Shown here piece after piece: positions 11,009-62,820 of a DNA stretch of 64,000 nucleotides; position 1 is the first letter of the stretch, and each line of letters begins with the position of its first letter. The position numbers and the translations under genes were made by a program. The DNA is from Mobula hypostoma (taxonomy: Eukaryota), in contig NC_086097.1 in the NCBI RefSeq assembly GCF_963921235.1, positions 79,858,001 to 79,922,000 on the forward strand, given 5' to 3'. The notes below the pieces were generated by a model. It searched no databases. It had not been told where the DNA came from and was given only the letters and a program-made list of their open reading frames with translations.

Positions 11009-11232
11009 CAACAGGAATTCTGCAGATGCTGGAAATTCAGGCAACACACATCAACGTTGCTGGTGAACGCAGCAGGCCAGGCAGCATCTCTAGGAAGAGG
11101 TACAGTCGACGTATCGGGCCGAGACCCTTCATCAGGACTAACCTGACGAAGGGTCTCGGCCCGAAACGTCGACTGTACCTCTTCCTAGAGATGCTGCCTG
11201 GCCTGCTGCGTTCACCAGCAACTTTGTGTGTT
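11009..11232. mobile_element. ORF-less fold-back Penelope-terminus element with hammerhead motifs
   Basis: ~90 bp inverted arms (11043-11136 and 11142-11232), 5-nt apex, one-sided 34-nt tail; 13-bp TSD ACCTATACGAAGA at 10996-11008 and 11233-11245. Confidence 0.9.
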
Positions 11233-11245
11233 ACCTATACGAAGA

Positions 11246-21690: not shown

Positions 21691-22181
21691 AAGTGGCACA
21701 CCAGAACATTTGTACATACACTCAGAGCACTACCTAGACTAGTACCCAGAGTTTATTATCTGAGGACCCATCTCCATGAGCTTCTTCAAAGGGCAGTCAT
21801 AATTAGGAAAATGATAAGCTACCTTCAGACCATCTGTTTTTTTGCAGTCAAGGACCTTGGTAAGAAGTTACTATGCAGTTTGGACTCCACAACCCAATGT
21901 AGTAAAGATAATCTGAAGTTGCTTAAGCGAACCATGACCTTTGTCAATAGTGGAACAAGTTTACACAAAATGGATCATAACAATTTCCACGATAGGACAG
22001 AATATTCCTTAGGTTGCCACAGTACAGTGCCAAAGTTAATGAGGAGGCATCATGAGTTCATAACCATGGAAACGTTTCTCGCTCTTAAGCAGACAACTAT
22101 TGCTGATGGAAAAATTAGTTAATGGAAGACAACTGATTCAGTATCATCTGCATCTGTGGAGAAGATACCTCAAATGCCATC

Positions 22182-22917
22182 ACACATAAAAGTTGCTAGT
22201 GAATGCAGCAGGTCAGGCAGCATCTCTAGGAAGAGGTACAGTCGACGTTTCGGGCCAAGACCCTTCCTCAGGACTAACTGAAAGAAGAGCTAGTAAGAGA
22301 TTTGAGAGGGGGAGGGGGAGGGGGAGATCCAAAATGATAAGAGAAGACAGGAGGGGGAGGGGGAGGGATGGAGCCAAGAGCTGGACAGGTGATTGGCAAA
22401 AGGGATATGAGAGGATCGTGGGACAGGAGGCCTAGGTAGAAAGATAAGGGGGGGGGGAGCCCAGAGGATGGGCAAGGGGTACAGTGAGGGGGACAGAGGG
22501 AGAAAAAGAAGAGAGAGAAAAAGAATGTGTGTATATAAATAAATAACGGATGGGGTACGAGGGGGAGGTGGGGCATTAGCGGAAGTTTGAGAAGTCAATG
22601 TTCATGCCATCAGGTTGAAGGCTTCCTAGACGGAATATAAGGTGTTGTTCCTCCAACCTGAGTGTGGCTTCATCTTTACAATAGAGGAGGCCGTGGGATA
22701 GACATATCAGAATGGGAATGGGACGTGGAATTAAAATGTGTGGCCACTGGAACGTCCTGCTTTCTCTGGCGGACAGAGCGTAGGTGTTCAGCAAAACGAT
22801 CTCCCAGTCTGCGTCGGGTCTCGCCAATATACAGAAGACCACATCGGGAGCACCGGATGCAGTATATCAACCCAGCCAACTCACAGGTGAAGTGTCGCCT
22901 CACCTGGAAGGACTGTC
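22182..22917 (-). mobile_element. Young 5'-truncated Penelope-like element: GIY-YIG C-terminus, 3' UTR and hammerhead-bearing terminus
   Basis: LIYCIRCSRCGLLYIGETRRRLGDRFAEH, VATHFN, RLEEQHLIFRLGSLQPDGMNIDF. Confidence 0.92.
22239..22277 (-). ncRNA. Minimal type I hammerhead ribozyme motif (intact core)
   Basis: Minus strand reads TTAGTC-CTGAGGA-AGGGTCTTGGCCC-GAAAC-GTC-GACTG: CUGANGA and GAAA core, stem II GGG/CCC, stem I AGUC/GACU, GUC cleavage triplet, loopless stem III. Confidence 0.8.
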
Positions 22918-24960
22918 ACTAACTTTATTACAAAGCCTAACAGGAAAGTGGTCTAATTAAAATCTCCACAGCAAGGTTTAAAGCATTGTGATAATCTTTG
23001 ACCCTGGCAAAATTCATATTGGCACAAGGACACAAAAAGCAGCAGTAGACAGACCATCACCAATGTAAGGAATAGAAATAATAAATGTGAGCCATTAAAG
23101 ACCCCTAGTTTGTAGTCTGCTTTCTAGAGCATTAAGAATGTACAGGTCAACATAATACATATCAAAAGCCAAAGTTAGAATCAATGAATCATGCTAGCAA
23201 TTGTTTTACATTTCAGGTCGCAGTTGAGAACTCATTTACCTTGAGTTCACCCTACTATTAAATGTCAACAACGAAGAGTTGACATTTGAACAGAAAGATA
23301 GTCTAAGGACATATGTTCAGCATTATATGTGTGCATGTACAGCTCAATTCATTGAGATGCATTATGACTCTCATTGTCATGACTGATGACCTGTTCATTA
23401 GAGTATCTATTGCTTTAGAACTCTAATCCATTGTGGGCTACATTTGACTTTCCAAGGAAGTCTCTCTGATGGTCTACTGGAAGGCCCTGCAACATGTGCT
23501 TCCCGGCAGGTCGTCTTAAGAATTTCATATTTAGAAGGATAAAGGCAGGAAGCAAGTATATTGACTCAGATAATGAGATAATTTCAGGAACTGGCAATGG
23601 AAAATCCTCCTGTGCTCAATCATTTCACAATACACTATACCCAGCAATCTTTGGGTTGAAGAATGCCACGGTTATTATGGCACTTGGACACACTGAACAC
23701 AATAGTTATCTCTACCATGAATCTGTTCTTAGAAAGTAAATAACAAATGAGAACAGTACAAAGAACATTGCACCATGCAGTGTTTCATCTTTACAAATCC
23801 TCCCATGTCAACCAGTTTGCATGTTTTATTTGAAGATGAAATTTTAATTAACATAAGTCTTGGTCCATTAATGTCAAAGGAATACTCTATATAATGATAA
23901 CAATAATTATTAATACCATTCTTCTTAACAATTGCTTTTCAAAGAATTACACAGGCCCTTCTATTTCAAAGCAATTCTGCCTTCGGCTGCAGCCAGGCTG
24001 ATGGAAGGTTGTTATCCTTCAGTTAAGGTGACTGCTAGAGATTATGAAGAATGAATAATAGCAGGTCTAATTCGAGAACATCCTGCTGCCAAAGGCACAT
24101 GTTAGACAAGGACACAATTATCTGGAGGAGCGCTGATCTGGAACAAAGGAAGGTTGAGGAATGAAGAAGCTCAGCCTGTTTGCTTTGGAGTGTGGGGCAG
24201 GCGGAGTGTTTTGTGGGTCGAATATTTCAAGGAAAATTCAGCCCACAGCTCAAGCGGGCAACAAATATAGTAGCAACATGCACAGTAAATGTCTCTGAAT
24301 CTGGTTCTGTCTGAAAACTTCCTGTTCTTTGTCTATGTACTTTATATCTCTTCCGGGTCTCTTTACACCCTCAACTTAAACAGTGTGATCCCCAAGTAGA
24401 CTGAAAAGAGCTGGCAGAAGGTCCCTGGGCATCCTGCTCCCTAACCAGTATTCAGTTCTGGGAACTGGGAAGTTCAGTAAGAGCCACGTGTGAGGGGACT
24501 GCCACAGAACAGGTGGTGGGAAATATTATTTTACTGAGTAACTACAGACTTGGTTGCTTCAAAATTCCCACTGTACAGATATGACAGTTTTACACTTCCA
24601 AAACAAGCCAGCACATGCTCTCTCAATATCAGATCATCAGCTTGAGGGGAAACAAAACAAAACTGAATTTCTGTTAAGTGTTATTTCCAATAAAACTGTA
24701 TATGAATTCTGTGATGATGATTGTGCTTTAGCAAGGGCAAAATACTCTGTCTCAAGCTAATTAAGGAATATCAAGCTGTTAAATCAACACTTGATTGGGA
24801 GCTGGTTGGCCATTGCCAAATTAGCTTGATGTTTCACCTTTAGAGTCAAGAAAGTATAGAACTAACAACGCAGCTTCATAGAATTCCAGTTAGGCAGCAT
24901 CTGGGGTATGGCATTCAATTCTGGATGCCCATTATAGGAAAAATGTTGAAGTTTTGGAGA

Positions 24961-27470
24961 AACACACATAAAATGCTGGAAGAACTCAGCAAGTCAGACA
25001 ACATCAATGGAGGGTAATAAGCAATAGATGTTTTGGGCTGAAAACCTTCGTCAGGACTGGAAAGGAAGAGGACAGAAGCCACAATAGAAAGGTAGGGGAG
25101 AGAAAAGGAGTACAAGCTAGCAACTGGTAGATGAGAGGGAAGGTGTGGGGGAGATGTTGAAGTACGAAGCTGGAGGGCGATAAGTGAAAGAGGTAAAGGG
25201 CTGCAAAGGAGTATGGTAGGAGACAACTGACCATGGAAGAAAGGGAAGGATGAGGGGCACAAGAGGAAGACTATGCATAGGGGAGAAGAGAAGGGCTGAG
25301 TGGGTAACCAGAATGGTGAAAGGAAAAGAGAGAAGTGGTATGGGAGGGAAAAAAATTACTGGAAGTTAGAAAAAAATCAATAGTCATGCTATCAGGTTAG
25401 AGGCTATCCAGACAGAATATGAGTTATTACTCTTCCATTTGGAACTTGGCCTCATCATAGCAATAGAGGCGGCCATGGACAGACATGTCAGAATGGGAAT
25501 GGGAAGTCCACCTTTTGCGACAGACAGAGCGAAAGTGGTTGACAACGTGGTTCTCCAAGCTGTGTTGGGTGTCGCAAGAGTACAGGAGACCATACCAGCA
25601 GCACCGGATACAATGGATAACCCTGGCAGTCTCATAGATGAAATATTGCCTCAGCTGGAAGGACTATTTGGAGCAATGAATGGTGGTGAGCGAAGAAGTA
25701 TAGAGACAGTTTTAGCACCTGTCACGTATGCAGGGATAAGTGCCAGGAGGGAGCTCAGTGGGGAGGACCAAGTGGACAAGAAAGTCATATAGAGTATGAT
25801 CCCTACAGAAAGTGAAACGGGGTGTTGGTGGGAAGGAGGGAAGGAAAGATGTGCTTAGTGGTAGCATCCCACTGGAGATGATGGAAATTACATAGAAAGG
25901 TGTGTGGAATATGGAGGCTTATAGGTTGGTAGGTAAGGATAAGGCAAACTCTATTCCTGTTATGGCAGGGGGAGAGCTGTGAGATTGGGATGAGGGCAGG
26001 TGTGCGAGAAATGTAAGAGATGCTGGTGAGGGCAGCATTGATGGAGATGGAAGGGAAGCCCCATTCTTTGATAAAGGACGCCATCTCAGATATTCTTTGC
26101 ATTTCTGGTCAGATGCTAAATGTATTTCATTGGCTTTGTATCTGTACTCGGCACAATGACAATAAAGTTGAATCTAATCTAATGTTCGAGTATAGAAAGC
26201 CTCATCCTGAGAACAGATGCAATATGGTCAGCCGAACTGAAAAAAAGGAATAACATTTTTACAAGTGACAGGGTGGAAAGAGGTATAGTCAAAATGACTA
26301 CGATAGTCAGCAGGGTTTGTAAAGGATGTCAATAGATAGTCTAACTTCAGCGATGGAGCCAGAGATTGAGAGATTGGGAGAGATGTGTCAGAGATGGACC
26401 AAGTAAATTTGAGGGCAGGGTGCAAATTTGAGGCAAAGTTGATGAAATTCATGAGGATGGAATAGGTGCAGGGAGCAGCGCTTTTGCTTTAAAGAAAGCT
26501 GAAAGTGAAATTATTGAGGGTGAGAAGTATTTTCGCCAGATGGAGGAGGGTGGTGGTGCAGAGGAACAGGTAAAGTCTGTTACCCACAAAGAAGAAGAGA
26601 GATTTCAGGTCTTCCTGATGGGGAGAGATGTGCATAGGAACTGGATGTCCTTAATTAAAACAGGGTGATCAGGACCAAGAAACTGAAAGTGATTGAAGTA
26701 ATGGAGAACATGTAAAGTGTCATGGATGTAGGCAAGAAGGGACTGAAGCAAGGGGCACACAAGTTCACTGGGGCAGGAGCTGGCCTCTCCATTGACCCCA
26801 CGAATCTTTAACCCTCCTCTGACCACAGCTCCAACTGCTGCCATATCTTCACCATCCTCTCCAGTCTGCCCCTCTCTGAGGCAGCAAACTCTATCCTCAG
26901 CAAAGCCCTTATCTTTGTCCTACAGTACCCACACCTCAGCGAGTTTAGCAGCTGCTATGATGTTTCTCTCTCTTTGTTGTATCTATCTTCAAGCCTACTT
27001 CTTTGGCAAGAATTCCCCACACCCCACCAATGATACCAGTCTTCAACCCTCCTCCTCTTCACAGACAACCCACTCTGGAATACTTCATCTCCAACTGCTT
27101 ATGAGGCATCAACAATCTCAACTTCATCACTCCTCTCTCCTATTCAAACCTCACACCCTCAGAACTCACTGCCCTCCACACCATCGTAAACACTGACAAA
27201 CCCAGTGACAATGGGAGGGGATGCTGTTGTTGTCTGGCAGACTGATCTCTACCTTGCTGAGGTCAGACAGTAATTCTCATCTACCTTCTCTTACTACTCC
27301 CACACCATCACCAACCTCATTGATTCCGGTGATTTCCCCACCCACTACCATCAGACTCATAGTTCTCTTACCATGCACTGCTTGTTTCTACCTCTTATCC
27401 ACACATCTGACTATCTGGGTAGGCCCATTGTTTCTGCCTGCTCTTGCCGAACTGAACTTGTGTCTGTATC
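24961..27470 (-). mobile_element. Long degenerate Penelope-like element (RT + GIY-YIG) with inverted 5' segment
   Basis: 24961-26780 is minus-sense (FINFASNLHPALKFTWSISDT); 26781-27470 is plus-sense N-terminal coding ending RPIVSACSC.TELVS; a small Rex-type tail is inserted at ~26092-26182. Confidence 0.8.
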
Positions 27471-38409: not shown

Positions 38410-38604
38410 ACTTAGATGTTGTGTTGCAATGATGCTTTGTGGGAATTAGCAATAAAGTAACAAAAATTAATGATATTTGTCATATAGTAGTAACATCTAA
38501 ATTATGAAGGGAAAGTTAAGCGTGGTCATTGATGTAATATGATTGACTGCTTTTTGTGAAATACAAAGTGAAAATTTAACTATCAAATAATGGCAATATT
38601 TTCT

Positions 38605-39665
38605 GGAAACACACACAAAGTGCTGGAGGAACTCAGCAGGACAGGCAGCATCTATGGAAAAGAGTACAGTTGATGTTTCAGGCTGAGACCCTTCAGCAGG
38701 ACTGGAGGAAATAAGTTGAGGTGTAGATTTAAAAAGGGAGGGGGAGAGAGAAACTTAAGGTGATAGGTGAAACCTGAAAGGGAGGGGGAATGAAATAAAG
38801 AGCTGGGAAGTTGATTGTTGTAAGAGACATAAGACCATGGAAGAAAGAAAAGGGGGGAGGAGCACCAGAGGGAGGCAATGGGTGGGTAAGGAGATAACAT
38901 AAGAGAGGGAAAAGGGAATGGGGGGGAGCTGGGGGCATTACAGGAAGTTTGAGAACTAGATGTTCATGCCTTCAGATTGGAGGCTACCCAGATGGTATAT
39001 AAGGTGTTGTTCCTCCATCCTAAATGTGGCCTCATCACGACAGTAGAGGAAGCCAATGATAATAGACATATCAGAGTGGGAATGAGAAGTGGAATTAAAA
39101 TGGGTGGCCACTGGGACATCCCATTTTGTCTGGCAGACAAAACGCAGGTGCTCAGTGAAGTGGTCTCCCAATCTATACTGGGTCTCACCGCTGTACAGGA
39201 AGCCACACCAGGAGCACCAGACACAATTTATGAACCCAACAGACTCACAGGTGAGGTGTCGCCTCACTTGGAAGGACTGTTTAGGGCCCTGAAGGTAGTG
39301 AGGGAGGAGGTGTAGGGGCAGGTGTAGCACTTGTTCCGCTTGCAAGGATAAGTGCCAAGAGGGGTGGGAAGGGACGAATAGAGAAGGGGAGTCGCATAGG
39401 GAGCGATCCCTGCAGAAAGCAGAAAGTGGGGGGAGAGAAAGATGTGCTTGGTAGTGTGATCCCATTGGAGATGGCGGAGGATTCAGAGAATTATGTGATG
39501 GACATGGAGGTTGGTGGGGTTATAGGTGAGGACAAGAGGAACCCTATCCTTGGTAGGGTGGCGGAGGAATGGGGCAAGAGCAGATGTGCATGAAATGGAA
39601 GAGATGCGATTGAGGGCAGCATTGATGGTAGTGGAAGGGAAGCCCCGTTTTTTGAAAAAGGAGTG
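38605..39665 (-). mobile_element. Penelope-like element, 3' part, with degenerate hammerhead
   Basis: DRVPLVLTY, CSWCGFLYSGET, RMEEQHLIYHLGSLQ; terminus reads CTGCTGAAGGGTCTCAGCCTGAAAC on the minus strand. Confidence 0.9.
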
Positions 39666-43500: not shown

Positions 43501-44740
43501 CCTCTAGGGAATCCTGCCCAAGACCTCCCGAGCCCCTCAGTTTTTTTGTATTTTATCTCCACTTAGAAAATAGTCAACACTTTCATTTCCTCAATCAAAG
43601 TACATGACCATACACTTCCCAACATGCATTCCATCTGCCATTTCATTGCCCATTCTCCTAATTTCTCCAAGTCCTTCTGTAGTCTCTCTACTTCCTCAAA
43701 ATTAACTGCCCCTCCATCTGCAAATTTTGCAACTAAGCCATCAATTCCATCACGCAAATCATTGACATAAAACATAAAAAAGAATTGGTCCTAACACAGA
43801 CCCGAGTGGAACACCACTAGTCACTGGCAGCCAGTCAGAATAGGCTCCCTTTATTCCCACTCTTTGCTTCCTGCCAATCAGCAACTGCTTAATCCATGCT
43901 GGAATCTTTCCTGTAATACCATGGGCTCGTAGCCTCATGTGTGGCACTTTGTCAAAGGCCTTCTGAAAATCCAAGTACACAACATCAACCGATTCTCCTT
44001 TGTCTATACTGATTGTTATTTCTTCAATGAATTCCAACAGATCTGTCATCCAAGTATCCTGAGACCTTGATAATCAACTCCAACATCTTCCCAACCACTG
44101 AGGTCAGAGTAACTGGCCTATAGTTTTCTTTCTTCTGCTTCTCTCCCTTCTTGAAAAGTGGAGTGACATTTTCAATTTTCCAGTCTTATTGAACCACTCC
44201 AGAATCTAGTGATTCTAGAAAGTTAATTACTAATGCCTCCACGATCTCTTCAGCCACCTCTTTCAGACACCATTTGATCCAAGTGACTTATCTAACTCCA
44301 GACCTTTCAGTTTCCCAAGAACCTTCTCTCTAGTTATGGTAACTTCACACATTGCATGCCTGCTTACAGCTGGAAATTCTACCATACTGGTAGTGTATTC
44401 TACAGTGAAGATTGATGCAAAATACTTATTCAGTTTGTCTGCCATTTTGTTGTTCCCCTTTACTACTTCTTCAGTATTGTTTTCAGTCCAATATCCACTC
44501 TTGCCTCTCTTTTACACTTTATGTATCTGAAAAAAATTTTGGTATCCTCTTTAATATCATTGGATAGCTTATTTTCATATTCCAACTTTACCTTCTTAAT
44601 AACTTTTTAGTTGCCTTCCAGTGGTATTTAAAAGCTGCGCAATCCTCTAAGTTCTCACTAATTTTTGCTTTATTATATGCCCTCCCTTTGGCTTTTATGT
44701 TGGTTTTGACTTTTTAGTTGTGTCATCTTAGCCACAGTTG
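40600..44740 (-). mobile_element. Older CR1 split by a younger opposite-strand CR1; pieces 40600-41042 and 43261-44740
   Basis: ORFs 44263-44445, 43759-44049 and 43563-43775 carry CR1 RT motifs; tail near 40600. Confidence 0.88.
41043..43260 (+). mobile_element. CR1 LINE, 5'-truncated, fairly young
   Basis: ORFs 41166-42212 and 42167-43165 (one frameshift); (TTTCTATG)n tail; TSD TATATG at 41037-41042 and 43261-43266. Confidence 0.95.
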
Positions 44741-45807
44741 TTCATAATGATTAGATTCTTTCATTGAGATAGCAAATTGCATTTCATTGAGAGGAAACAA
44801 TTGCTGGCATATAAATTGCCATGGATGTAGTCTCTGTACTCAGCTCTTAAAGGACAATACAGATATGACTGCAGACTCCAAACATTTGTATTTTGGGAAC
44901 ACTATAATGATAGCAAACCCCCGTGCCTGCTCTACCTTTTCCTGTAGTCTGAAGGAAAAGGTTTCTGAAGGCACACTTCCCTAAGCATAGATTTTATGCA
45001 ATGTTGCAAATGCAGCAGGGAACAGAAAACTGTGAGACAGAGCAGAGATCAGATGGTAGCAGCCTGGAATAATTCTGAAGTTAGGAAGTTGAAAGTAACT
45101 GTAACTTTCCCCCCACAACCATTCAAAGCAGTCAAGATCAGGGGGCATGAGGGTTGGTGATCCCCTTGGTATGCAAATTGGTGAAACTAGAGTTCGGGAC
45201 CTAGTCATTCATGTCCTGTCACTGGGGAGTCTGGAGTTCAGGGTCCTCATCCAGGAACCTCACTTGTACTGAGGTCAATACTGAAAATCGAAGCCCAAAC
45301 ATCTGCTGGAAGTCTGGAAGCCTGAAAGAGCCTGTGTCTATGAGTCTCCGCAAATCCAGTGGGGAAGTCGAAGCCCAATGTCTTTGAATCTACAAATCCA
45401 TTGGAGGCTGAAGATGGCTGATCCTGGAGTTGGGAGTACTGTGTGTGCATGGGAGAGAGGAATGAGGCTTGTTTTGTTGTTGTTGTTGTTCAGTTACTTC
45501 TTATATTCTGTTATTATTGTGTTCTGTGTTGTTCTGCAGAGCACTGTGGGCACGTTATGTTGGCGCCAGAAAGTGTGGCAACACTTGCGGGCTACCCCCA
45601 GCACACCATTGGCATGTGATGGTTGTCAACACAAACGATGCATTTTATTGTATGTTTGATTGAACGTATAATAACTAATAAATCCTACTCTGAAATAAGC
45701 AATCCTTTATTTTAAAAGTGATTTCTGATTCTGTATTGGTCCACAAGAGGCAATTGTTGTCCACTTTCACTTTCCAGACTTTTCAGGATTTTATCCTAAT
45801 CAAAGAT

Positions 45808-46060
45808 TAAAGTTCAAAAGTTCAAAGTAAATTTATTATCAAAGTACATATACATCACTGTATACAACCCTGAGATTCATTTTCTTGAAGCATTCATAGT
45901 AAATACAAATAAATGCAATAGAATCAATGAAAGACCGCATCCAAAAAGACAGACAACCAATGAGCAAAAGACAAGAAATTGTGCAAATACAAAACGAAAA
46001 GAAATAATCATAATATTGAATAAATAAATAAGCAATAAATATTAAGAATATAACAATCAT
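45808..46060 (-). mobile_element. Rex1-type LINE or SINE 3' terminus
   Basis: AAGTTCAAAAGTTCAAAGTAAATTTATT tail layout like the other Rex-type ends in the window. Confidence 0.5.
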
Positions 46061-46242
46061 CCTTTCTCATTCTTCAAAACTCTCATCGTCCCTGGCTTAT
46101 ACAAGCTCTATCCCATCCTCTTAAAAAAAACAACCAACCATTGCCTCTTCTGCTCCTCCCCATGTATCAAGCCCAGCAAACAGTTTCCCAACTACTTCTA
46201 ATGTATCTACATCTTTCTTTAAATGAGACCATTACTGTACAC

Positions 46243-48964
46243 CAGGGTTTCTCAACTGGAGTTCCGTGAGAGATCACTAGGGGTTCTATGGGAGATCATG
46301 ATTTGAACTTCATGCAACACACAATGCTAGCACTCGCAGCGACTGAGCAGACCCATTAACAACTTCATTAGCCGTCTCTCAACCTTGTATGACAGCGCGC
46401 AGTAGGTTCGTGTTCATTCTCAGTTTTTGACGCAAGATTGGGGATAACTGGTGAGCGCTGTATTGCACAGAGAAGAGGGCGGTAAGCTGGTCATTGCTGA
46501 GTGCTGTATTGCATGGAGGGGAGGATGCTAGGCTGCTAAGGAGTGTGACGTGTGTTTTATGAGCATTGAATGAACTCGCCCAACTTGGGCTGTGATGTCG
46601 GCCTCTCCCTCCTGAATTACCTCCTCCAACTTCCCCTTAGGCGCTGATGACTGACCTACGGGAGCGAACAAACTACCTGCGTAATAGCAAATTGGGAGGG
46701 AAATTTTTATTCCAAAGACAGTACTGTCAGGCAATTTTTAGAGAGGAAGTGTGAGACGCAAGAGGAGGATTCTATGCCTAGGGCTACAGACAATTCTGAT
46801 TAGGTCCATGATGAAGAATTACATTTTCCTGAGTGATTTCACTGCACTAGTGAAACAACAGACACAAAAGAAGTTTTTTTTTTACAAAGCTATAGAAGTT
46901 TATTTACACAACAATTACACAAAGTACGAACATTAAGTATCTACATTTTGACAGTGAATAAATTCAAATTAAAATATAATTATTAGTGTCCATAAAACAG
47001 ATAATTCCCTGGGGGACCCACTGCTCCTGGAAATACCCCAATGCACCCATTGTGACTGCATGCTCCCTCTCCAAGGATAGCCAGGCATGAACATATCCTT
47101 GGAAGAAGGACAGGCAGTCAGCCTGGCAGAGCCCTCAACTTTCCACTGCCTGGATCCATGAATGGCCATATTTGCCAGGCCCAGGAGCAAGCCCACCAAT
47201 AGATCCACCTGACACACCCCTTTCCATATTGGGTGCACATGTATAAGGAGTGTATGGCTGAAGTACAACTAGAACCTGAGCAGAAGCTCCTTCAATATTC
47301 AAACAGCAGCTGCAACCTCTCACACTCCATATAAATGTGGTACACTAACTCCTCTTGACCACAGAATAGAAAGATGGAGGGCTGTCAGTGAACCTGCCTA
47401 AAGACCTATTGCACTGTACTGCCCTGTGCAACACCTTCCACCCAGGTCCCCAGTGTACAGGGGAAAGACCCCTGCACAAAGAGATTTCCACTGGGGGCCT
47501 CTTCTGCTGCCAGACAGTAAAACAGATCGCCAAGGTGAGTCTCGTTGGCAGATGAAGACAAGAAGAGCACTATACAAGAAACACTTTGGAGCGTCATAGA
47601 AGGGCATGGCTGGCATCCCTGCGAGATGGCCCACATCATGCGGGCCCCTCTCCTGCATGGTATCCTGAGGCCTGGGTCCGACAGGTAATTCCGACCAATC
47701 AGATAAGGGTGAGGCCAGAACCCCTCCAATTCCCCAAGCCCCTCAACACCCACCATGATAGGATGGGGACCAGTCCCCCTCGTAGCTAGAGCACTGTCCT
47801 CCACCGGTGCAGAAGCACCCTGTCTGGGTGAGACCAGACTCCATATCCTCATCAACTCTCGGTAAAAGCGCAGCAGTTACCTCAAAGTGACACGGCTGAT
47901 GCTATCTGCTGGAAGTCACATGCCCTACCGCAGGCAGTGTCCCTGGTGGATCAAGTGTGTTGCCAATGCATGCAATCTCGGAGGGCCCTGAGGTGAAGAG
48001 ACGACAGCTGGGTGCACACACCAATGACTGACCACCCTCCACGAGAGATCAGGACCCCAGTAGAGACGCAATGCCTCCTGTTGCCCCAGAATTTCACGAG
48101 CCTCTTTTGGGTCCTGAAGACAAATGCAGTGGGCGGGACTAAAGTAATCACCCGGCACCACGTCTTTACAGTGAAAGCTACTTATCAATGGGCTTTACAT
48201 GGACTAGTGATCCAAGTTGTCCTATTCCACTGTGCCTAGTCTGTGGCAAACAACTTACAAATGTAGCAATGGGTCCAGTAAAATTGAAAAGACACTTAAC
48301 TACAAGTCACAGCCATATGACACGTAAAAGTGCTGATTATTTTAAACCACTATTGGAATCTCAAAACAAACAGATTAAAGCTTTTGAAAATAAACTCACA
48401 ATCAGTAAAAAGACTCAGGAAGCAAGTTATTTAGTAGCTTTAAGACCAGATCACTAGAGAATGTTTTAAAAACTGTGATGAAAACCTGGACAAAGTGCAC
48501 ACCAATCTCCTGCTACCTACAGAAATCTGGCAGCTTAGCAGAGGAAGAGTTCTCAGTGAGGTGCTTGAGCTGAAAGGTAAATTGCAGGAGTATTCAAGAA
48601 AACAGTATGCCAGATTTTGCTAAATCCTTTGAAGATGAAGAAAGGCTTCAGAAAATGGCCTAATTAACCTACATTTTTCATCTTATGAACTAGAAAGTTT
48701 ATTATGTTTGCCTTACGAGTTTTTAAAATTTATGAAAGAAAAGGAAAGTAATTTCAAGAAAGGCTCAACTGTTTTTTTTTCCAAGAAACATTGACTAAAA
48801 ATCCATTCTCTATTCAAAACAGCACTGACAATTATTTTGGGATTATTATACCTGCAACTTACTGATCATGCTAATATAGCATGAGCTCTAGATATAATAA
48901 TTTTTACGGAGGGGTTCCCTGAGATCTGAAAATATCTCCAGGGCAAAATGGTTGAGAAAGGCTG
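46243..48964 (+). mobile_element. hAT (Charlie/Buster-like) DNA transposon, internally deleted
   Basis: TIRs CAGGGTTTCTCAAC / GTTGAGAAAGGCTG; perfect 8-bp TSD CTGTACAC at 46235-46242 and 48965-48972; BED-finger YLSMGFTW...PLCLVC...KLKRHL at 48180-48310. Confidence 0.92.
46873..48165 (-). mobile_element. Tx1-type (L1 group) LINE 3' fragment nested in the hAT
   Basis: DLLVGLLLGLANMAIH, GDL(G)WKVLHRAVQCN; AATAAA plus poly(A) on the minus strand at 46873-46900. Confidence 0.75.
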
Positions 48965-49144
48965 CTGTACACAATGCTCCAAATGTGGCCTCATGATTGT
49001 CCTGTACAACTAGAGCAAAAATTCCCCTACTCTGTACTCAATTTTTCTGTCATTAAACAAATACATTCTGGAAACACAAGGGACTGCAGGTGCTGGAATC
49101 TGGAGCAACAATTTACTGGTCCTAATGCAGGTTTTCAACCCAAA

Positions 49145-50787
49145 CATAAAGAAACTACAGCAGACCAAGGGGTTTTATTTTTGTATGGAACAGAAGAAAA
49201 AACCTTCAAAGGGACTGAATTCAAGTGAGCTACTTGAATACAGGAAATTAACAATTAGAATAATTATTCTGAGATCATCTTTCTTACGTTAGATAATACA
49301 TGCTAGAGGATGTGAAGGCTTCCATCTGGGGGTGGGGGAATGAGACAAAGGCAATAAAGTTGTAAATCTGTTTCACTGTTAGAACCCATTAACAGTTTTA
49401 AAAATATTAAATCAGATATCATAGATCTTTAGGCTGAAATTCCTTGTTGAAGGCTAAGGGTTGACTATATAAATCTCCAGTGATTTCAAGCTGTGTTTGT
49501 GAGCAATTCCTTTCTTCCAAAAGACACTGCTTGAGCTACTGAATTTCTCCAGCACATTATTTGTTGCACAATAACATAATATTACTTATTTTCAATTACT
49601 AGGATTTTGCAATTTGGGTAGATATTCACCCTCTGCAGTCAAAGCTCTCAACATAGAGTTAAATAATATGTTTTCATTTTTCTGCTAAAATGGTTAATTT
49701 CGTTTTTCACACATCATACTCCATTAGTCAGATTTTGCACATTCATTTTTCTGTCCTTTCCCAGACTCCGTCTGTTGCCTTCATCAAGTCACTTACATAA
49801 ATTAACAAAAGTTGAGTCCAACCCACACACTAAAGGCAATTTATCATGACCATTAATAAATTAACATGTATGTTTTTGGGATGTGGGTTGAAACTCAAGT
49901 GCTGATGGTAAGCCTGTCGTTACAAAGAGCATGTACAAAGAATTTTGGAGGTAAGAATTGAACCCAGGTTGCTGGACCTATGAGGTAGTAGCTATAACAG
50001 TAGTTTCACTCTTCATCCAAGTTACAGTTGATGAACTAGGCATTCACCACAGTCTTCAGTATGCTGCAATAATTAGTAGTTAATCCAAGCTATGCAATCT
50101 TGAGCAAACAGAAAAAACGTGGTTCAGTTTATTATAAAATTGATCCACATACCAAAATCACCTACTTCTTCATATGAAGTAAGGGAGAACAAGAAGAAGG
50201 CCCTTAACTCCGTGTGGAGTCATCGGGACGCCATCATGACAGCGTTTTTTTTAGCAGGCTTTCTTATTTTTACGAGGCCAAGTTGCTAGCTCGATGCTCA
50301 ACCCAGCATGGATGGAAAGCGTGCAAGAGGGCTGGCTGGATTTGAACTTGGGAGCCTTTGCTCCGAAGTCCAGCGCTGATGCCACTATGCCACCAGCTGG
50401 CTATATGAAGAAAGAGATGAAGCATAAAGAAATTACAGCAGACCAAAGGTTTTTATTTTTGTACGGAACAGAAAAAATAACATTCTAAGGTACTGAAGTA
50501 GAGGGAATTCCTTGAACACAGAATGAACAAATAGAATCACTGTTAGTTTTGAAATCATTTTTCTTACATTTGATAATGCATGCTAGGGGATGTGAAGACT
50601 TACAACTGGGGGAATATGAGGCCAAGGCAATGAAGTTGTAAATCTGTTTCATTGTTAGGAAAATTAACAGTCTTTAAAATCTTAAATCAGATATCATAAA
50701 TCTTTAACACGAGGCTGAAATTCCTTGTTGAAGGGGAAGGACTGACTATATAAACCTCAAAAACAATTACCAGTGGTTTTAAGCTGT
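49145..50787. repeat. Diverged direct duplication of a ~350-bp non-TE block (49145-49494 and 50423-50787)
   Basis: Collinear alignment by eye, e.g. CATAAAGAAAYTACAGCAGACCAA, AAGTTGTAAATCTGTTTCA, AGGCTGAAATTCCTTGTTGAAGG. Confidence 0.9.
50187..50402 (-). mobile_element. tRNA-derived SINE
   Basis: Minus strand has A box TGGCATAGTGG and B box AGTTCAAATCC; imperfect 15-bp TSD ATATGAAGTAAGGGA / ATATGAAGAAAGAGA. Confidence 0.75.
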
Positions 50788-51304
50788 CATTTTGAAATCT
50801 GAAAGTACTTTAAGGCAATTACCACCATTTGCAATAGATTGATTTTACTTCTCTTAATACTAACAAAATAAATGCATAAATCTAGAGTTCACAACTGATC
50901 CTGTTGTTTCTGGAGATGGGCATGAATCTATAACTCAAATATATTTTTCAATTAGCTCATCTGAAAAGAAAGCACTGTCATAGTTTTCTTTTCAATGCAC
51001 AAGAATAACCAACATCAAATAGGTATATATTGGTACTACATGACACAAGGGATTCAGTTCTTCATGCTTCATGCGATTATGTAATTATAGTGCATCTTCC
51101 TTGATTTTCCGGATATCCTGGCACAGTTTAACCCTGAACTAATATTCCTTTTAGAATTATCACTGAGTCTTCTTTCTCTGCTGATTTTCCGGTAGGTTCC
51201 AGAATGCAATAAACAGGAATTCTGCAGATGCTGGAAATTCAAGCAACATACATCAAAGTTGCTGGTGAACGCAGCAGGCCAAGCAGCATCTATAGGAAGA
51301 GGCG

Positions 51305-51342
51305 CAGTCGACGTTTCAGGCCGAGACCCTTCGTCAGGACTA
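51305..51342 (-). ncRNA. Minimal type I hammerhead ribozyme motif
   Basis: Exact reverse complement of 51670-51707. Confidence 0.78.
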
Positions 51343-51669
51343 ACTGAAGGAAGAGTGAGTAAGGGATTTGAAAGCTGGAGGGGGAGGGGGAGATGCAAAA
51401 TGATAGGAGAAGACAGGAGGGGGAGGGATAGAGCCGAGAGCTGGACAGGTGATAGGCAAAAGGGGATACGAGAGGACCATCCTCTGGGTCACCCCCCCCC
51501 GCCTTGTCTTTCTTCCCGGACCTCCTGTCCCATGATCCTCTCGTATCCCCTTTTGCCTATCACCTGTCCAGCTCTCGGCTCTATCCCTCCCCCTCCTGTC
51601 TTCTCCTATCATTTTGGATCTCCCCCTCCCCCTCCAACTTTCAAATCCCTTACTCACTCTTCCTTCAGT

Positions 51670-51707
51670 TAGTCCTGACGAAGGGTCTCGGCCTGAAACG
51701 TCGACTG
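51670..51707 (+). ncRNA. Minimal type I hammerhead ribozyme motif
   Basis: TAGTC-CTGACGA-AGGGTCTCGGCCT-GAAAC-GTC-GACTG; predicted cleavage after 51702. Confidence 0.78.
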
Positions 51708-52554
51708 CGCCTCTTCCTATAGATGCTGCTTGGCCTGCTGCGTTCACCAGCAACTTTGATGTATGTTTCCAGAATGCAATAGTTGGTTTCACAATTTGTT
51801 CCACAATCTTATTAAACTAGTGTTTTCTGCATATCAACCCTAACAGTTGCAGTAAGTATGCATGACTATGGATTCATTTAATTAATGTTCTCTTAGTTTT
51901 CTGTCTTTTAAGTATTAACAAACTCAGTATTTCCAATTTCTCAATCTATTTAAGTCCCATATCATTGGTTCCACTCTAGTAATTCTGCTTTTGCAACATC
52001 TTCAAGGCCTTGACATTCTTCCTAGCACATAGTCATAGTACTCACTATTAATGACCCCAGCTGGGGCCTTACCATTATTTTATAAAGGTTAACCTGGTTG
52101 CTGTTCTATGTTCCCACAGAGTATTTTTTTCAAAAACAGCTTTCATAAAGCCTTCAAATAATCATGCATGTACATTCCCACAGTTCCTATATGCCTCTTA
52201 AAATTATTCATTTTTTCTTCTCATTTGTACACTCTATGTTCCTTGACAGTCTCTCTCTGCTTTTATTTTCTACAAGTTATTAACTTAACATTTCGTGACA
52301 CCTAAACAGAAGTGAAGGCAAGACTATTGAAATGCACTCTCTTGTTAACAAAAGAATATAAAAAAGAACTAGGTGCAGAGGGAAAAAGAAATATTTTTAA
52401 AATAGCTGACCAAAGAACTGAAAAAATCCTAGTATATTGCATTTACTATTCAGGCTCAGAATGCACAATTTGAGTTTTAAAAGATTCATTTAGAACATTT
52501 ATTAAAAAGTGGTTAAAACTAATTCCACAACTTTTTAATTCATGGATTCTGCAA

Positions 52555-53480
52555 TGAAAACAACAGGGAATATTCAGCAGGGTCAGGCAGCATCCATAGA
52601 CAGAGAAACCGATTCAGCATCTCAGGCTGATACTTCATCATATTACATCTCAGAAATAGTAGAGGGGAGATAGGCACAATTTGTAGTGTTGTATGTTGCA
52701 AGTCGGTGGAGAAAACTTGTTAATTGCAGCTGATCTATCTGGAGGAGATGTAAATAGACGGAGATAATGAGAAGTTCGAAAACCCATAATGCTTTTAGTG
52801 AAAGAAACAAACTACAGTTCCAAAAATTTGAATATTCAGCACATTATGCACCATGCAAGGAGAGAGAAAAAGAAAGTTAATGTTAAATGTTAAGAGAATT
52901 GCATCAGAATTAAACAGTTGAGTGTTGCAACACACCCTTGCTTTTAGTCTTCAATGGAAAAGTGTAAGGGATCAAAGACTAAAAGGTTAGAGTTAGAGGA
53001 GGATGAAAAATAAAAGTGACAGAATCAGAGGCAGGATCAGGGTATGCAGGCAGAATGAACAGAAAGATTCTGCATCACTAAATATATTTGGTTTCCCCAA
53101 GTCAAAAACGACCTTATTGTGAGCACCAAATACACAGTATTTTAAATTGGAAGTAGTACAGCACATCACTGTTTCAACATGAAAGGGATGTGTGGGCCTA
53201 GGATGATGTAAACTGATAGGTAAAAGGGCATGTTCTGCATTTCCTGTGGTTAGATTGAGAAACATCATGAGAAGGGGAACAGGCATTGGTGGTGGTGGAA
53301 GAGTAAACCAGGGAGCTACATAGGACCAGTATCTGCAATGTTGAAGAGACAGGGGAAAAGATGACTGATGTTATAATAACATTGAAGAGAATGAAAATAA
53401 CCTAAGGAGATTGACTGAGATAGAAGCTGGCGAGCTAGAAGGTGATGATAAGAATAAACCTGTCATTGCTTTGGGAAAGT
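52555..53480 (-). mobile_element. Very old Penelope-like remnants
   Basis: CAGCAGGGTCAGGCAGCATCCATAG terminus; degenerate CTTSNLKYCV GIY-YIG-like coding. Confidence 0.45.
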
Positions 53481-53529
53481 AAAGGAGTGACAACAAAAAG
53501 GGAAAAAAAAGAACTCATGCCATTTTTGA

Positions 53530-54340
53530 ATGTATTATACTTGAACTATTATGCTATAACGAAGGATGCCATGAGATGGAAAGGGTGTAAAAAAGATTCA
53601 CAAGAATGTTATTGGGCCTAGAGGGGTTGAGTTAAAAGGAAGCTGAATAGGCTGGGATTTCTTTCTCTGGAACATTGAAGGCTGAGGTATTTTATTTTAT
53701 TTAGAGTTACAGCCCTTCGAGCCGCACCACTTAGCAAGTCTCGACAACCCCTGATTTAATCCTAACCTAATCATGGAACATTTACAATGACCAAGTAGCC
53801 TACTAACCGGTACAACTTTGGACTGTAGGAGGAAACTGGAACACCCAGAGAAAACCCACACATTCCACAGAGAGGACATAGAAACTCTTTACAAACGACG
53901 GCAGAATTGAACTCTAAACTCTGACACCCTAGGCTGTAATAGTGTCACTGTAACCACAACACTATTGTAGCACCCTCAGAGGTATATAAAATCATGATGA
54001 GTATAGATGAGGTGGATGGTTACAGTCTTTCTCTCAGGGTAGGGGAGCCTAAAACTAGAAAATAAAGATCTAAGGTGAGAGGGGAACGATTTCAAAGAGG
54101 CCTGCGGGGCAACATGTTACACAACAGGTAATGGGTATTTGGAGCAAACTGCAGAGGAAGCTGTAGAGATGATTATGATTACCATGTTTAAAAGGCATAC
54201 AGACAAATACATGAATAGAAAAGAGAAATATGGGCCAAATGCAGGCTAGTGAGACAAGCTTGGATAGACATCTTAGTTGGCTTGGATGAGTTGAGCTGAA
54301 TGGCCTGTTTGTGTGCTGTATAACTTAATGACTCTATGAC
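53530..54340 (+). mobile_element. CR1 3' fragment containing a minus-strand V-SINE-like insertion (~53693-53975)
   Basis: RFTRMLLGLEGLS...; resumes AGAGGTATATAAAATCATG; tail ACTCTATGAC. Confidence 0.75.
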
Positions 54341-56029
54341 AACCAAGGCTGTATCAATACTAGGAAACAAAAATAAGGTGGGGGGGAAAAAAGATGTCAG
54401 CACTAAAGTGTCATCATTAGAACATCTATGACGGACCCAGAAAACTGTGATAATGTAATGCAGTGCATATAGGAAGCAGGGTGAGAGGAAATGCAGTCAA
54501 GTTATGGAAGTATTGCAATGGATGTTGGTTGCTAATCCAAGATAGAGGCAAATGATTCTTAAAAGGGAAGGGAAGAGTCAGACATGAGAATGAGAGTATG
54601 GTGGAAAGTATTAGCAGAGGTGATGAAATTTTCACATTTTGTATGTGAGCAGGAAGAAGCAGCTAGACAGTTCAGAGGTAGTTATTCACCATAAGGAACA
54701 AACATTTCATTCCCACCATGAAGCTATAGCTACTGCATCATATACTGTGTCTGCTGTACTACATAAAATACCTGCAACAAAAGCACCAATAGATCTTGAA
54801 GCTAATGCATGTAATTGGGAATTAGAATGCTCACCTGTATATTCAAATCCACCTATGGTTTGCTCCTCCTTATTGCTTTGACCTCCTGCCCTGAAATTCT
54901 CCAATTCTACATATACTAGATACTACTTATGCTACTATAATTTCACATAGGTCTTAAGCCTTCAGTCCATAAATCTCTTCCTTCTTCTATTTTCAGTGTT
55001 GGCCATGGTTCATCTGTTTGGAACATCACCACTACTAGAAGCTACTACAGAGGTCTGAGCACAACATCTAGGCTGACATTTACAATGCACTGATAGGAAT
55101 ATAGGCTACATTAAACTAAGGCTTCATTTTCCTGGTCAAGTGGACAAAACATCTGACAACATAATTTAAAAACTAACAAGAGATTTATTCCTTGTGTTAT
55201 GGCCAACATTTCCCCCTCTTTAGGAGCAAATCAATTGCCCTTCTTCCTATTTAAGAGCAGTTAATATGCTTCAAAACATTATTGACTAAAAGAAACTTCG
55301 GTAATTCTATGGTACACAAATGATGTTATAATATGCATTCCCTTTCTTCAGAAAAACAAACAGCTGAGCTTTCTTAACAAAGATCCTTTGGTTTCAATGG
55401 TTTAGCATCAATGTCACTATAACTGATCACTGAAGCTTTCCATTACATTTCCCACTTGTGATGATATCACTCTGGGACAATTAATATGACTGAATAAAAA
55501 TATCAAATAAATAATTATTATATATGTTCTGGAAGTTTTTATTAAATGAATGCAAATTTATTATTGTGCAATATTGAACAAATTGGGTACCAATCAGAAT
55601 AAGCAAGAAGAGGGCCATCTTTCTGGGCTGAAAGAAAGTGTTCAACGAAGCAGTTACCCAATTTGTTGCTGATTTCTTTAATTTGGCATTAACCAAATGT
55701 AATGAGTGCACTTTCAGAAGTGAGGCACTATTTCACCTGGAAGAATTATTTAGGGGTTTCTGAATGATAGGAAGGGAAAAAGTTAAATCACAAGCATTGC
55801 AATTTTTGCAGTTGTGAGGGAAGTTACCATGTAAAAGAAAGTAGGGGTTGGCGGAGATGAAAGTGTAAATCAGGGAACTGTGGAATGTACAGTTTACTTA
55901 ATACTGAAAGGGAAGGAAAAATACAGGTTAAAAATAGTAGAGGGACTTACTGCTGGCTGTGGATGGAATAACAGCATTTTATAGCTGCTCCTAGTTTACT
56001 TTTTTTGCTTTCCAACCTGATTTGATACT

Positions 56030-59866: not shown

Positions 59867-59942
59867 TTCGAACGCTAAATTTGGGACAGAGTAAATTGAT
59901 TGGGTTAAAATTCCCGAAAGAAAGAAAAGGCAAACAGCAGAA

Positions 59943-62820
59943 ATGGAGATTGAGGAATTTCTAAAGGTGCCAACCTTGGAGGCATTAGAGGATGCCAGGA
60001 AAGCAGAATTGGCAGCTGTGGCCAAACGGTTGAATCTTGTTAAGGGGAAGTCGACAATGAGGAGAGAGGAGATACACAGAGCTATCGTAGAGCACTATGT
60101 ATCTAAAGGTGTGTTTCTCCAAGGGGAGCTGGAGGTGGTGTCTATTGAAAAACCTGCTGGAGACGCGGTACAGGTGCAGCTTGAAAAACTGAGACTTGAG
60201 CACGAGTTCCGGGTACGGCAGTTAGAACACGAAGAGAAACAGTTAGAACGGCAAGAGAGAGAGAAACAGAGGGAAAGGGAATTTGAGCTGGAGAAGTTAA
60301 AGATGACGGCAGCGCAGGGGCCCATTCCGAACCAAGGTGGACGGTTCAGGGCGACCCAGGAGGTTAGGCTGGTTCCCCCATTTGACGATACCGATGTGGG
60401 TCGGTACTTTCTCCATTTCGAAAAAGTTGCTATAAGTCAGGACTGGCCGAGGGATAAGTGGGCTGCTTTGCTTCAGAGTGTACTTAAAGGAAAAACCCAA
60501 CAAGCTTACTCAGCTTTGTCCGCGGAAGATGCCCAGAGGTATGAGGTGGTGAAAGAGGCCATCCTCAGGATTTATGAGTTGGTCCCGGAGGCATACCGGC
60601 AGAGGTTCCGGAATGCGAGGAAGTAGTGGGACCGCATGTATTTAGAGTTTGCCCGTGAGATGCAGACATATTGTGAGCGTTGGTGCGCCTCGAAGGGGGT
60701 GGATGGGGATTATGACAGACTGCTACAGCTGATCCTGATTGAGCAGTTTAAAGGTTGTGTCCCTGAAGGTATGAGACCCTACCTAGATGAGAAAGAGGCA
60801 GCCACGTTAGCCGCAACTGCTAAGTTAGCAGATGAGTACGCGTTGACGCATAAAATGAAGTTTGCCCCGAGTAAAGGCTACCAGAAGGGTAGTCAGGACG
60901 GCGGGGAGAGTCCGCCAGAAAAGTCAGAAAATAAGCCGGGGACTAGTGAGAAGGATAAGGTAGACTGGGAGCAGTCTGGTAGGAAGTCTCCTGGGGTCGT
61001 CTGTTATAATTGTGGGAAAGTCGGACACTTTGCGTCCAGGTGCTTTGCCCCAAAGAAGGAGACGGGGAAAGGAAAAACGGCGATTTCGACTGGCTGTATC
61101 GAGCTGGTAAACGAACCGCTAGGAGAGGAAAGGTCTGCCAAAGTTCAGGAAGGGCGCGAGAGGTTTATCTCGGCCGGATTGGTGTCGGTGAAGGAGGGGT
61201 TAAACCCAGTTCCAGTGCGGATCTGGAGAGACATGGGAGCGTGTCAGTCATTGATATTGAAGAGTGTATTAGAGTTTAGTTCAGAGTCCCAGACTGGGGA
61301 GGTCAAGGTCAAAGGTATTGGGGAAGAGACAGAGGCAGTCCCTTTGCACCAGATACACCTACAAAGCAACTTGGTCTCTGGACTAGTCACGATCGGGGTG
61401 AGGTCCGAATTACCAATGAAAGGCGAGGAAGTCTTACTCGGTAATGACCTCGCGGGGGGAATTGTGTTCCCAGCCGTGAGATTGACAAGTCAGCCTGCCA
61501 GCATTGAGGCCCCGCCCATGGACTCACAGGTTTATCCCGTTTGCGCAGTAACTTGGTGGATGTCAAGGAAGGCTGCAGAGGCTGATATAAAGTTAGCTGA
61601 GACGTTTCTGCCAGCCTTGTATGAGGAGGGGGTAGAAAGTGAAAAGAAGGAATGCAATGAAACAGGAGGAAGTGGGGAAATTAAGGTAGATTTATCATTA
61701 GAAAAGAAGGACTTTATACAGGCACAGGAGCGAGACGAGGAAACAGCTGGCTGTGAAACAGAGTTAGGAAGAGAGCCAGTAGGCTATGGTGTGAAGGGGG
61801 AGGTGCTAAGGAAGGAAGGGAGACCAAGTACCGCAGATGAGGAATGGGGGATGGTGCCAAAAATCTCTGGGGATGAGATTTTTAACCTGGCCCACAAGGT
61901 ACCCCTCGGTGGACATTTTGAGGTGCTGAAAGAAACAGTCGGTGGAATCATGAAAGAGGTTTACTGGCTGCACAGGAGGAAGGATGTTATTGATTATGGC
62001 AGACGCAAACTGAGACGGTCACAGGCTTTTGATATGCTAACAAACCTAGTCGGTGTTAGCGCGGAAATCAATGAAGCTAGGGTCCCCCTGATAAGGAAAA
62101 AAAACCATTTTGAAAAGATGAGTATGGTATCGACCAGATGGGAGAAGGCTATTGTTTTGGCCAGCTCTGCTGATAAGGTCTCTCCCTTAATCCCCGAACA
62201 AAGCGACTCTTTAGGAGAAGTAATTAAATGGCTCGCACACGTGTGTTTGATTGTCCTGAGGCGATGCAAAGAACTGGGACGTTGGGTGTTGTTGGTCACG
62301 CTAGGTCAGCCTAGTGAGCAACACTCCTATAGATCAGCCTAGTGAGCAACACTCCTATAGATCAGCCTAGTGAGCAACACTCCTATAGATCAGCCTAGTG
62401 AGCAACACTCCTATAGATCAGCCTAGTGAGCAACACTCCTATAGAATGAGTAATTCAGTGACGAAAGGGCTAACAAACATAGAAGTGTATATTGGCGATG
62501 TAATACGGCTGTCTGAAGCCAGTTTGATAGTGAACCTTGAAAAAAATGAGTTTGGCCACACGAAGGTCACTTATCTGGGAACTGTGGTGACACAGGGGCA
62601 GCTGGCAGTGATGCAAGCTAAGGTGCAGGTTATCTCTGACATCCCAACCCTGACAGACAGAGGGCCCTCAGAAGGCTCCTGGAGATGGTGGGGTACTGTA
62701 GGAAGTTTTGCAATAACTCTGCGGTTACAACCCCTCCCCCTCCTACTAAGCCCTTGCGAGAGAAAACTAAGTCGGGATAGGACGACCCTTGTTATCGTGG
62801 TCCGGGACGAAACTCAATGA
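59943..62820 (+). pseudogene. gag-pol polyprotein remnant (SCAN-like capsid, CCHC, protease, integrase zinc-binding region, RT fragment)
   Basis: LVPEAYRQRFR, LILIEQF, CYNCGKVGHFASRC, RDMGA, LLGNDL, AHKVPLGGH, YIGDV, VNLEKNEF..VTYLG; TAG at 60624-60626; minisatellite frameshift. Confidence 0.88.
62306..62445 (+). repeat. Perfect 28-bp minisatellite x5
   Basis: TCAGCCTAGTGAGCAACACTCCTATAGA at 62306, 62334, 62362, 62390 and 62418, with no spacers. Confidence 0.97.

Follow-up and report, generated by a model that had tools for sequence, protein, structure and literature searches.

The palindrome at positions 51212-51766 of the window (the whole stretch analysed, 64,000 nucleotides of Mobula hypostoma contig NC_086097.1) carries a hammerhead motif on each strand, which raises the question of whether it is a functional unit in its own right or the trace of the way in which a mobile element entered the genome. 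The original prediction took it for an orientation-independent cassette. We consider it very probable that the locus is instead a single recent insertion of two 5'-truncated PLE ends placed head to head, that both nicked target strands likely primed reverse transcription, and that the hammerheads are passengers predicted to be inactive.

An inverted-repeat search found an inverted repeat of 244 nt (98%) at this locus. In the exact register of the arms paired positions sum to 103012, with mismatches at 51375/51637, 51395/51617, and 51477/51535. The arms of 236 bp with three differences described earlier correspond to 51245-51480 and 51532-51767 and were reproduced, and they have been refined to 231 bp (51246-51476 and 51536-51766) with two differences (0.87%, 95% range 0.1-3.1%). 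The third mismatch falls at the junction, where alignment with the family copy at 22 kb indicates that the plus copy already begins at 51477. Loose contig ends before 51477, among the rows listed for family contigs, agree with this placement. The features of the 555-base insertion, which comprises two 5'-truncated PLE ends (pLTRs) head to head, are as follows.

51197-51211, plus strand: target-site duplication (TSD), left, 15 bp, present once in the empty site of a relative (organism B)
51212-51245, minus strand: 34-nt PLE tail, left end only, with the same tail at 11009-11042 and a cluster of family loose ends here
51246-51476, minus strand: left arm, 231-nt 5'-truncated pLTR end, from alignment to family copies
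51305-51342, minus strand: minimal type I hammerhead, 38 nt, predicted cut after 51310 on the minus strand, from sequence and folds
51476/51477, no strand: inversion junction, from alignment to the 22-kb copy
51477-51535, plus strand: 59-nt spacer, upstream pLTR of the plus copy, aligning to the 22471-22420 region of the 22-kb copy
51536-51766, plus strand: right arm, 231-nt pLTR end, tail absent, from alignment to family copies
51670-51707, plus strand: minimal type I hammerhead, 38 nt, predicted cut after 51702, from sequence and folds
51767-51781, plus strand: TSD, right, 15 bp, from the direct repeat and the empty site of organism B

The minus copy, read from 51476 to 51212, consists of 231 nt and the 34-nt tail. 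The plus copy, from 51477 to 51766, consists of 290 nt without a tail, and its first 59 nt, which are family sequence from farther upstream, form the loop. The palindrome is therefore asymmetric, with a tail on the left only and a spacer that is a property of the right copy. The two 15-bp direct repeats match perfectly, as claimed at the outset, and the chance of such a repeat is about 2e-6 after allowing for 1600 boundary choices. Both arm differences (2 of 231) break pairs, and no compensatory change between the arms was found. The arms carry the same letter at all six mirrored diagnostic positions, at each of which a different letter is frequent among family contigs (51249/51763, 51282/51730, 51303/51709, 51304/51708, 51430/51582, and 51436/51576; 40 of 58 rows listed), and therefore both arms come from one source element. 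Neither copy is a local DNA copy of the other because each holds family sequence absent from the other, which rules out a local inverted duplication. Two independent insertions in opposite orientation are ruled out by the single TSD and the shared diagnostic letters. A MITE or TIR DNA transposon does not fit either, the tail being one-sided and the TSD varying in length (15 bp here, 13 bp at 11 kb).

Related copies in the same window place the insertion in a family.

11009-11232, no strand: second head-to-head insertion, tail left only, junction near 11142, with its own 13-bp TSD
22178-22935, minus strand: family copy, 86% identical to the arms, continuing upstream into a GIY-YIG frame, from alignment and Pfam
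38609-39662, minus strand: older family copy, about 74% identical, with remnants of the linker zinc finger and endonuclease, from alignment

The 13-bp TSD of the 11-kb palindrome lies at 10996-11008 and 11233-11245, and its tail, at 11009-11042, is the same as that at 51212-51245. This second palindrome has its junction at the hammerhead's 5' edge and a broken GAAA box in its minus-strand hammerhead. Its tailed copy exceeds the tailless one in length, the opposite of the situation at 51 kb. The 22-kb copy contains a frameshifted endonuclease frame (PF01541, 24.5 bits against a cut-off of 22.6) with a CXXC between GIY and YIG (CIRC before YIGE). The CX2-5CXXC motif of the RT-EN linker is found in the 38-kb copy, where Pfam gave no match for the 38956-39519 frame, and in four of four relatives examined, all of which also have a CXXC inside GIY-YIG. 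Longer relatives of the 22-kb frame amounted to 12 proteins among 19 candidates; the best 5 of the 12, at 78-90% identity, are labelled as proteins of two rays, Hypanus sabinus and Mobula hypostoma, and carry RT motifs, which makes a stingray-like batoid the most likely host. An RT upstream of the endonuclease is seen in the database relatives P0005 and P0008 and, in the window, as decayed fragments at 25352-26482. There are five decayed RT/endonuclease fragments of this PLE type, all on the minus strand (6627-6980, 9791-10297, 22579-22915, 25352-26482, and 38944-39662). The RT is tied to the 51212-51766 ends only through an endonuclease fragment and its database relatives, because no full-length element of this subfamily was recovered in the 64-kb window. 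For the copies at 22, 25, and 38 kb, the search revealed neither a TSD nor an inverted partner. According to excerpts of PMC8557442, the CX2-5CXXC linker and a CXXC within GIY-YIG mark the Neptune/Nematis PLEs. The family is thus likely a "Neptune-type" PLE, an assignment that draws on the linker motif and on reports of Neptune from fishes. Scans for further loci returned 0 and 9 stretches in metagenomes and 0 in viral sequence; the 9 stretches were dropped as they were all chance matches of 21-27 nt. In the literature, no report was found joining Neptune/Penelope GIY-YIG elements with shark.

The locus also agrees in most respects with insertions already described. Excerpts of PMC3846280 and PMC8557442 present an inverted truncated pLTR, a one-sided tail of 30-40 bp, and a TSD around the whole unit as standard for endonuclease-bearing PLEs. 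The palindrome shows the same head-to-head pLTRs within one insertion, the same 5' truncation, a single TSD, and a one-sided tail of 34 nt, which is repeated at 11 kb. It differs from those examples in that both copies are shorter than 300 nt with no coding sequence between them, and in that the TSD is 15 bp as opposed to 8-10 bp in the rotifer examples (same sources, in part). Poseidon of Anolis carolinensis (PAc), as described in part of PMC11167929, likewise carries its hammerhead a short way upstream of a pair of preferred ends, between which the tail lies, and has AT-rich flanks, which are seen here in the family loose ends. The start sites of PAc are described there as non-homologous to the cut DNA, whereas the ray junctions are partly alike in four of four cases. 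Poseidon is also without the CX2-5CXXC linker of Neptune/Nematis that the ray family has. The non-LTR retrozymes of bioRxiv 10.64898/2026.07.22.740005 resemble the palindrome, as far as the available part of that source goes, in being non-coding, PLE-derived, and present in a chondrichthyan with a type I hammerhead. However, their units are arranged head to tail in tandem and both ribozymes share a strand, whereas the 51-kb element is head to head and cannot form a dimer in cis. Identity with a non-LTR retrozyme was rejected, the hammerheads lying on opposite strands.

The original description of the insertion as young was borne out by sequencing runs. Contigs of four runs (X1, X5, X6, and X10) were aligned to 50300-52700. 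In organism B, a relative (X6, record 25), one contig of 1680 letters aligns to 50377-51196 and then to 51767-52627 at consecutive record positions. It joins 51196 to 51767 with more than 800 letters on each side and holds the 15-mer once, and is therefore an empty site. The flanks of organism B differ from the 51-kb locus at 28 of 1680 letters (1.7%). The empty site and the arms, with 2 of 231 positions different, support a young palindrome, and the flank divergence is compatible with insertion after the split from organism B and with the difference between the arms. In principle, an exact deletion of the palindrome from one 15-bp repeat to the other would leave the same empty site. In X1, the possible source sample, contigs cover each flank and enter the element by 25 and 21 letters in opposite orientations, and in X5, a second sample of organism A, a contig with five differences starts 29 letters inside the right end. 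All three extents are below the bridging rule of 31 letters. No contig across the inner junction 51476/51477 was found among those listed.

The contigs aligned numbered 92,703 in X1 and 80,638 in X6, nearly all of them on the element, and therefore the family is very large. The share of depth without the common other letter was higher in X1 than in X6 in all nine rows tabulated (0.41 as against 0.02 at 51436). This contrast fits a subfamily expanded in organism A, although summed depth is not a copy number. Loose ends of the family cluster at 51212-51215 and 51241-51243, which correspond to the two family ends, one where the tail stops and one close to where it starts (best 24 of 1503 rows). 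All 15 joints listed for family contigs (of 953) lead from the left arm into the right, the pattern expected of head-to-head junctions in other copies. Most of these 15 are near the 5' edge of the hammerhead (51326-51354 and 51647-51735), and none is at the predicted cut site.

The hammerhead motifs at 51305-51342 (minus) and 51670-51707 (plus) are, as first reported, identical to each other over 38 nt. In the plus motif, stem I is formed by 51670-74 and 51703-07, followed by CUGACGA (51675-81), an extra A (51682), stem II (51683-86 and 51691-94), GAAA (51695-98), and the palindromic ACGU (51698-701). CUGANGA, GAAA, NUH, helices I and II, and a palindromic 15.2-16.2 are all present. Helix I has 5 bp, an extra base follows A9, helix II is short, and ACGU stands in place of helix III. 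The claim of an intact hammerhead holds for the core letters, but the motif is minimal, helix III is absent, and the G10.1-C11.1 pair is lost: 51694 is T in both arms, giving G-U (or A-U without the bulge). Position 11.1 is U in the 51212-51766 arms and C in the 11-kb and 22-kb copies. An Rfam scan of the window gave 0 matches at the gathering score, and so no hammerhead family, nor was there a hammerhead among the 33 weak matches obtained for 51100-51900. The microRNAs among those weak matches were rejected, as they merely reflect the long hairpin.

Minimal hammerheads of metazoan PLEs, in the account given by excerpts of PMC4209133, share with the ray motif the type I form, all core letters, an extra base between 9 and 10.1, a 5-bp helix I, the absence of helix III, and a palindromic 15.2-16.2. 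The ray motif differs in having a helix II of 3-4 bp, as opposed to 7-8 bp in Schistosoma, and U rather than C at 11.1. The same excerpts report that a single minimal Schistosoma hammerhead showed no cleavage and dimers little, and already note such hammerheads on opposite strands 100-700 bp apart. In part of PMC11167929, cleavage by the hammerhead of the Anolis PLE required protein, and insertion in vitro did not depend on this hammerhead. On its own, the 38-mer is predicted by equilibrium folding to favour a structure in which core and cut site are base-paired with each other (-11.0 as against -7.0 kcal/mol), with a probability of 0.0006 for the active-like fold. A single arm is predicted to fold without the hammerhead (z 0.65), and cofolding two copies of the 38-mer yielded a predicted structure other than the dimeric hammerhead. 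What is masked would thus already have been a weak or conditional ribozyme.

Folding of the whole element gave -512 and -522 kcal/mol for the two strands, with all 38 hammerhead bases predicted to pair with the antisense arm. The predicted duplex of hammerhead and antisense has -80 kcal/mol as against -7 kcal/mol for the active-like monomer fold, and in a transcript ending at 51707 the hammerhead is still predicted to be masked, with a highest unpaired probability of 0.05. Read-through RNA from either side would, on these predictions, form a 231-bp hairpin that buries the sense hammerhead, in line with the proposal that the element sequesters its own ribozyme, provided that it is transcribed by read-through. 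The hammerheads at 51212-51766 are accordingly modelled as passengers, inactive in any read-through RNA. This is an equilibrium prediction, and the finding in PMC11167929 that a PLE hammerhead can be switched on by the element's own protein counts against it. Such a hairpin RNA could feed ADAR or Dicer as any inverted repeat pair could, as a side effect and not a selected function. Part of PMC3681739 reports siRNAs from inverted Penelope copies in transformed Drosophila, and by analogy the 51212-51766 hairpin is a plausible Dicer substrate. Thus the idea of Dicer and siRNA, like that of hammerheads on opposite strands, has precedent. In X5 and X10, which are only guessed to be RNA runs, the flanks are patchily covered at a depth of 2-9, from which neither strand nor level can be read. 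Counts of places with A>G and T>C were equal (6 and 6) in X5, X10, and the DNA run X1, but paralogous contigs swamp the arms and deprive this comparison of power to reveal editing. A Pfam scan of 130 of the 137 frames of at least 42 aa in 43600-56000 gave two weak matches, both below the cut-off, and identified no host exon around 51212-51766 among those 130 frames. A scan for bacterial promoters, which is not relevant to the host, found none.

The cruciform that had also been suggested is unlikely because the spacer is 59 bp and a longer spacer strongly lowers the activity of inverted repeats in double-stranded DNA. In yeast, according to the available part of PMC10164571, lengthening the spacer from 12 to 100 bp lowers recombination of Alu repeats 300-fold. 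A hairpin in single-stranded DNA is possible at 51212-51766.

With regard to the insertion itself, the endonuclease of the element would nick the two target strands 15 nt apart. One target 3' end would prime reverse transcription at the tail's outer limit and the other where the tail begins. Both cDNAs would end prematurely, having covered 231 and 290 nt of the sequence upstream of the tail, and would then be joined end to end. Each copy would carry a hammerhead only because the motif sits 60-100 nt from the end of the element. Excerpts of PMC11167929 report that both strands are cut and elongated by the protein of the Anolis element and that the tail lies between two internal RT starts. The origin of the inverted ends and tails of PLEs is stated as open in parts of PMC8557442 and PMC11167929, and nothing on priming was found in the available part of PMC9977147. 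The head-to-head build recurs at 11009-11232 with its own TSD and a different junction, and the proposed step of priming by both strands draws on these two loci.

In L1 twin priming, two primers from one staggered target give rise to an inversion inside one TSD. The palindrome resembles this in having an inversion within a single TSD, attributable to two primers on a staggered target. L1 inversions copy different parts of one RNA, whereas here both copies are of the same terminal segment, and therefore two templates or an RNA with tandem pLTRs are needed.

Four target ends resemble the element by identity count.

51197-51211, no strand: left target end of the 51-kb insertion
51767-51781, no strand: right target end of the 51-kb insertion
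10996-11008, no strand: left target end of the 11-kb insertion
11233-11245, no strand: right target end of the 11-kb insertion

Aligned to the family sequence that lies immediately past the end of the element, the targets showed 6 of 9, 6 of 9, 4 of 9, and 5 of 8 identities, or 21 of 35 in total, whereas the likeness expected at random window or flank positions is 8.3-9.2 of 35 (about 9). Of 40,000 draws, a fraction of no more than 0.005 reached the observed count when 5 letters were compared, and no more than 0.00005 when 8-9 were; these values concern two loci, a window length chosen post hoc, and tail ends taken from a loose-end consensus. The likeness at four junctions hints that both target strands prime. 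An endonuclease with a preference for tail-like DNA would yield the same signal. A wider proposal, that PLEs integrate by double-ended, pairing-assisted target priming in which each nicked strand forms a loose duplex (4-6 of 8-9 letters) with the RNA of the element just beyond one of its two internal starts, is one that we put forward tentatively and think somewhat more apt to fail than to hold. If double-ended priming is true, stump palindromes record both priming events, and a count of copies in the ray genome could prove it. No report of target-template likeness for PLEs was found in the literature, in titles and passages.

As a separate observation, an identical 8-mer, TTCCAGAA, comes directly after three family 3' ends, at 38601-38608 (minus), 49066-49073 (minus), and 51767-51774 (plus). 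It resembles a 9-nt repeat unit inside the tail and, in the two older copies, may be derived from the element. As a target motif of the family it was rejected, with a window count of 8 against 5.3 by chance and no occurrence in the loose-end consensus rows listed.

Other routes to the same structure have to be weighed against priming by both target strands. An unlikely though serious one keeps the PLE origin and produces the inversion by fold-back self-priming, of cDNA or on antisense RNA. Arkhipova and colleagues favoured self-priming on an antisense template for head-to-head PLE palindromes (PMC3846280, in part), and a possible fold-back point exists here, since three of the four letters of 51477-51480 can pair with 51532-51535. 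However, fold-back of a cDNA requires the tail and the loop on one continuous copy, and here the tail belongs to the minus copy and the loop to the plus copy. The 11-kb palindrome has the reverse arrangement, and the resemblance of target to template at both ends also argues against self-priming. An artefact of assembly, in the form of a fold-back chimera, is scarcely credible. It would account for the inner junction being spanned by none of the contigs listed, but the perfect TSD is backed by the empty site, both outer junctions occur in source contigs in opposite orientation (with the X5 contig starting inside the right end), and the two arm differences and the asymmetry are out of keeping with it.

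The remaining alternatives assign the palindrome a role. That it is a selected, orientation-independent RNA cassette, acting as a regulated ribozyme or a source of small RNA, or a mobile palindromic unit of its own, is very improbable. The hairpin is predicted on both strands, the Drosophila siRNAs (PMC3681739, in part) offer a parallel, and summed depth is high at some family joints, although depth is no copy number. Against it, the palindrome is missing from the relative 1.7% away, its junction is unlike that of the 11-kb palindrome and unlike the 15 joints listed (of 953), both arm differences break pairs without compensation, the ribozyme is predicted to be masked in both directions, and no host exon was found in the 130 frames scanned nearby. 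The cassette as a function is not supported, as its symmetry follows from PLE integration and recurs at 11009-11232. Equally improbable is transcription from inside, in which a pLTR promoter in or near the spacer would send out two single-stranded hammerhead RNAs that dimerise through ACGU and cleave. The pLTR houses the promoter of PLEs, which may act in both directions (PMC3846280; PMC8557442, both in part), and the ACGU that would form helix III between two RNAs is preserved. However, both copies are 5'-truncated, and the folds of the single arm and the 38-mer pair, together with the loss of G10.1-C11.1, speak against cleavage.

The palindrome at 51212-51766 is a real, young, and well-formed but ordinary representative of a known type of PLE insertion. 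The locus itself matters little, being one young copy in a very large family and a species marker at most. Short palindromes with exact TSDs and recoverable empty sites permit counting of target-template pairing at both ends and of which arm is longer, and such counts would separate priming by two strands from self-priming.

Elsewhere in the window, LINE copies at 6942-9702 and 15466-18214 form an inverted pair separated by about 6 kb, with 91-97% complementarity across some 2.7 kb and with RT-like frames, and possibly represent an inverted duplication. A weak LIM-domain-like stretch at 44751-44981 (plus), with a Pfam score of 22.1 against a cut-off of 22.9 and PINCH as the best PDB match (E 0.024), is either a decayed retrocopy or chance. 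The stretch at 48143-48454 (plus) is like a Spin-doc zinc finger, below the Pfam cut-off, and probably derives from a DNA transposon that has since decayed. At 59895-62342 (plus) there are long frames, with a CCHC zinc knuckle, which we take to resemble the gag region of an LTR retrotransposon. Another short repeat of high copy lies at 50300-50400, 800 bp upstream of the palindrome, with very high summed depth in all four runs.
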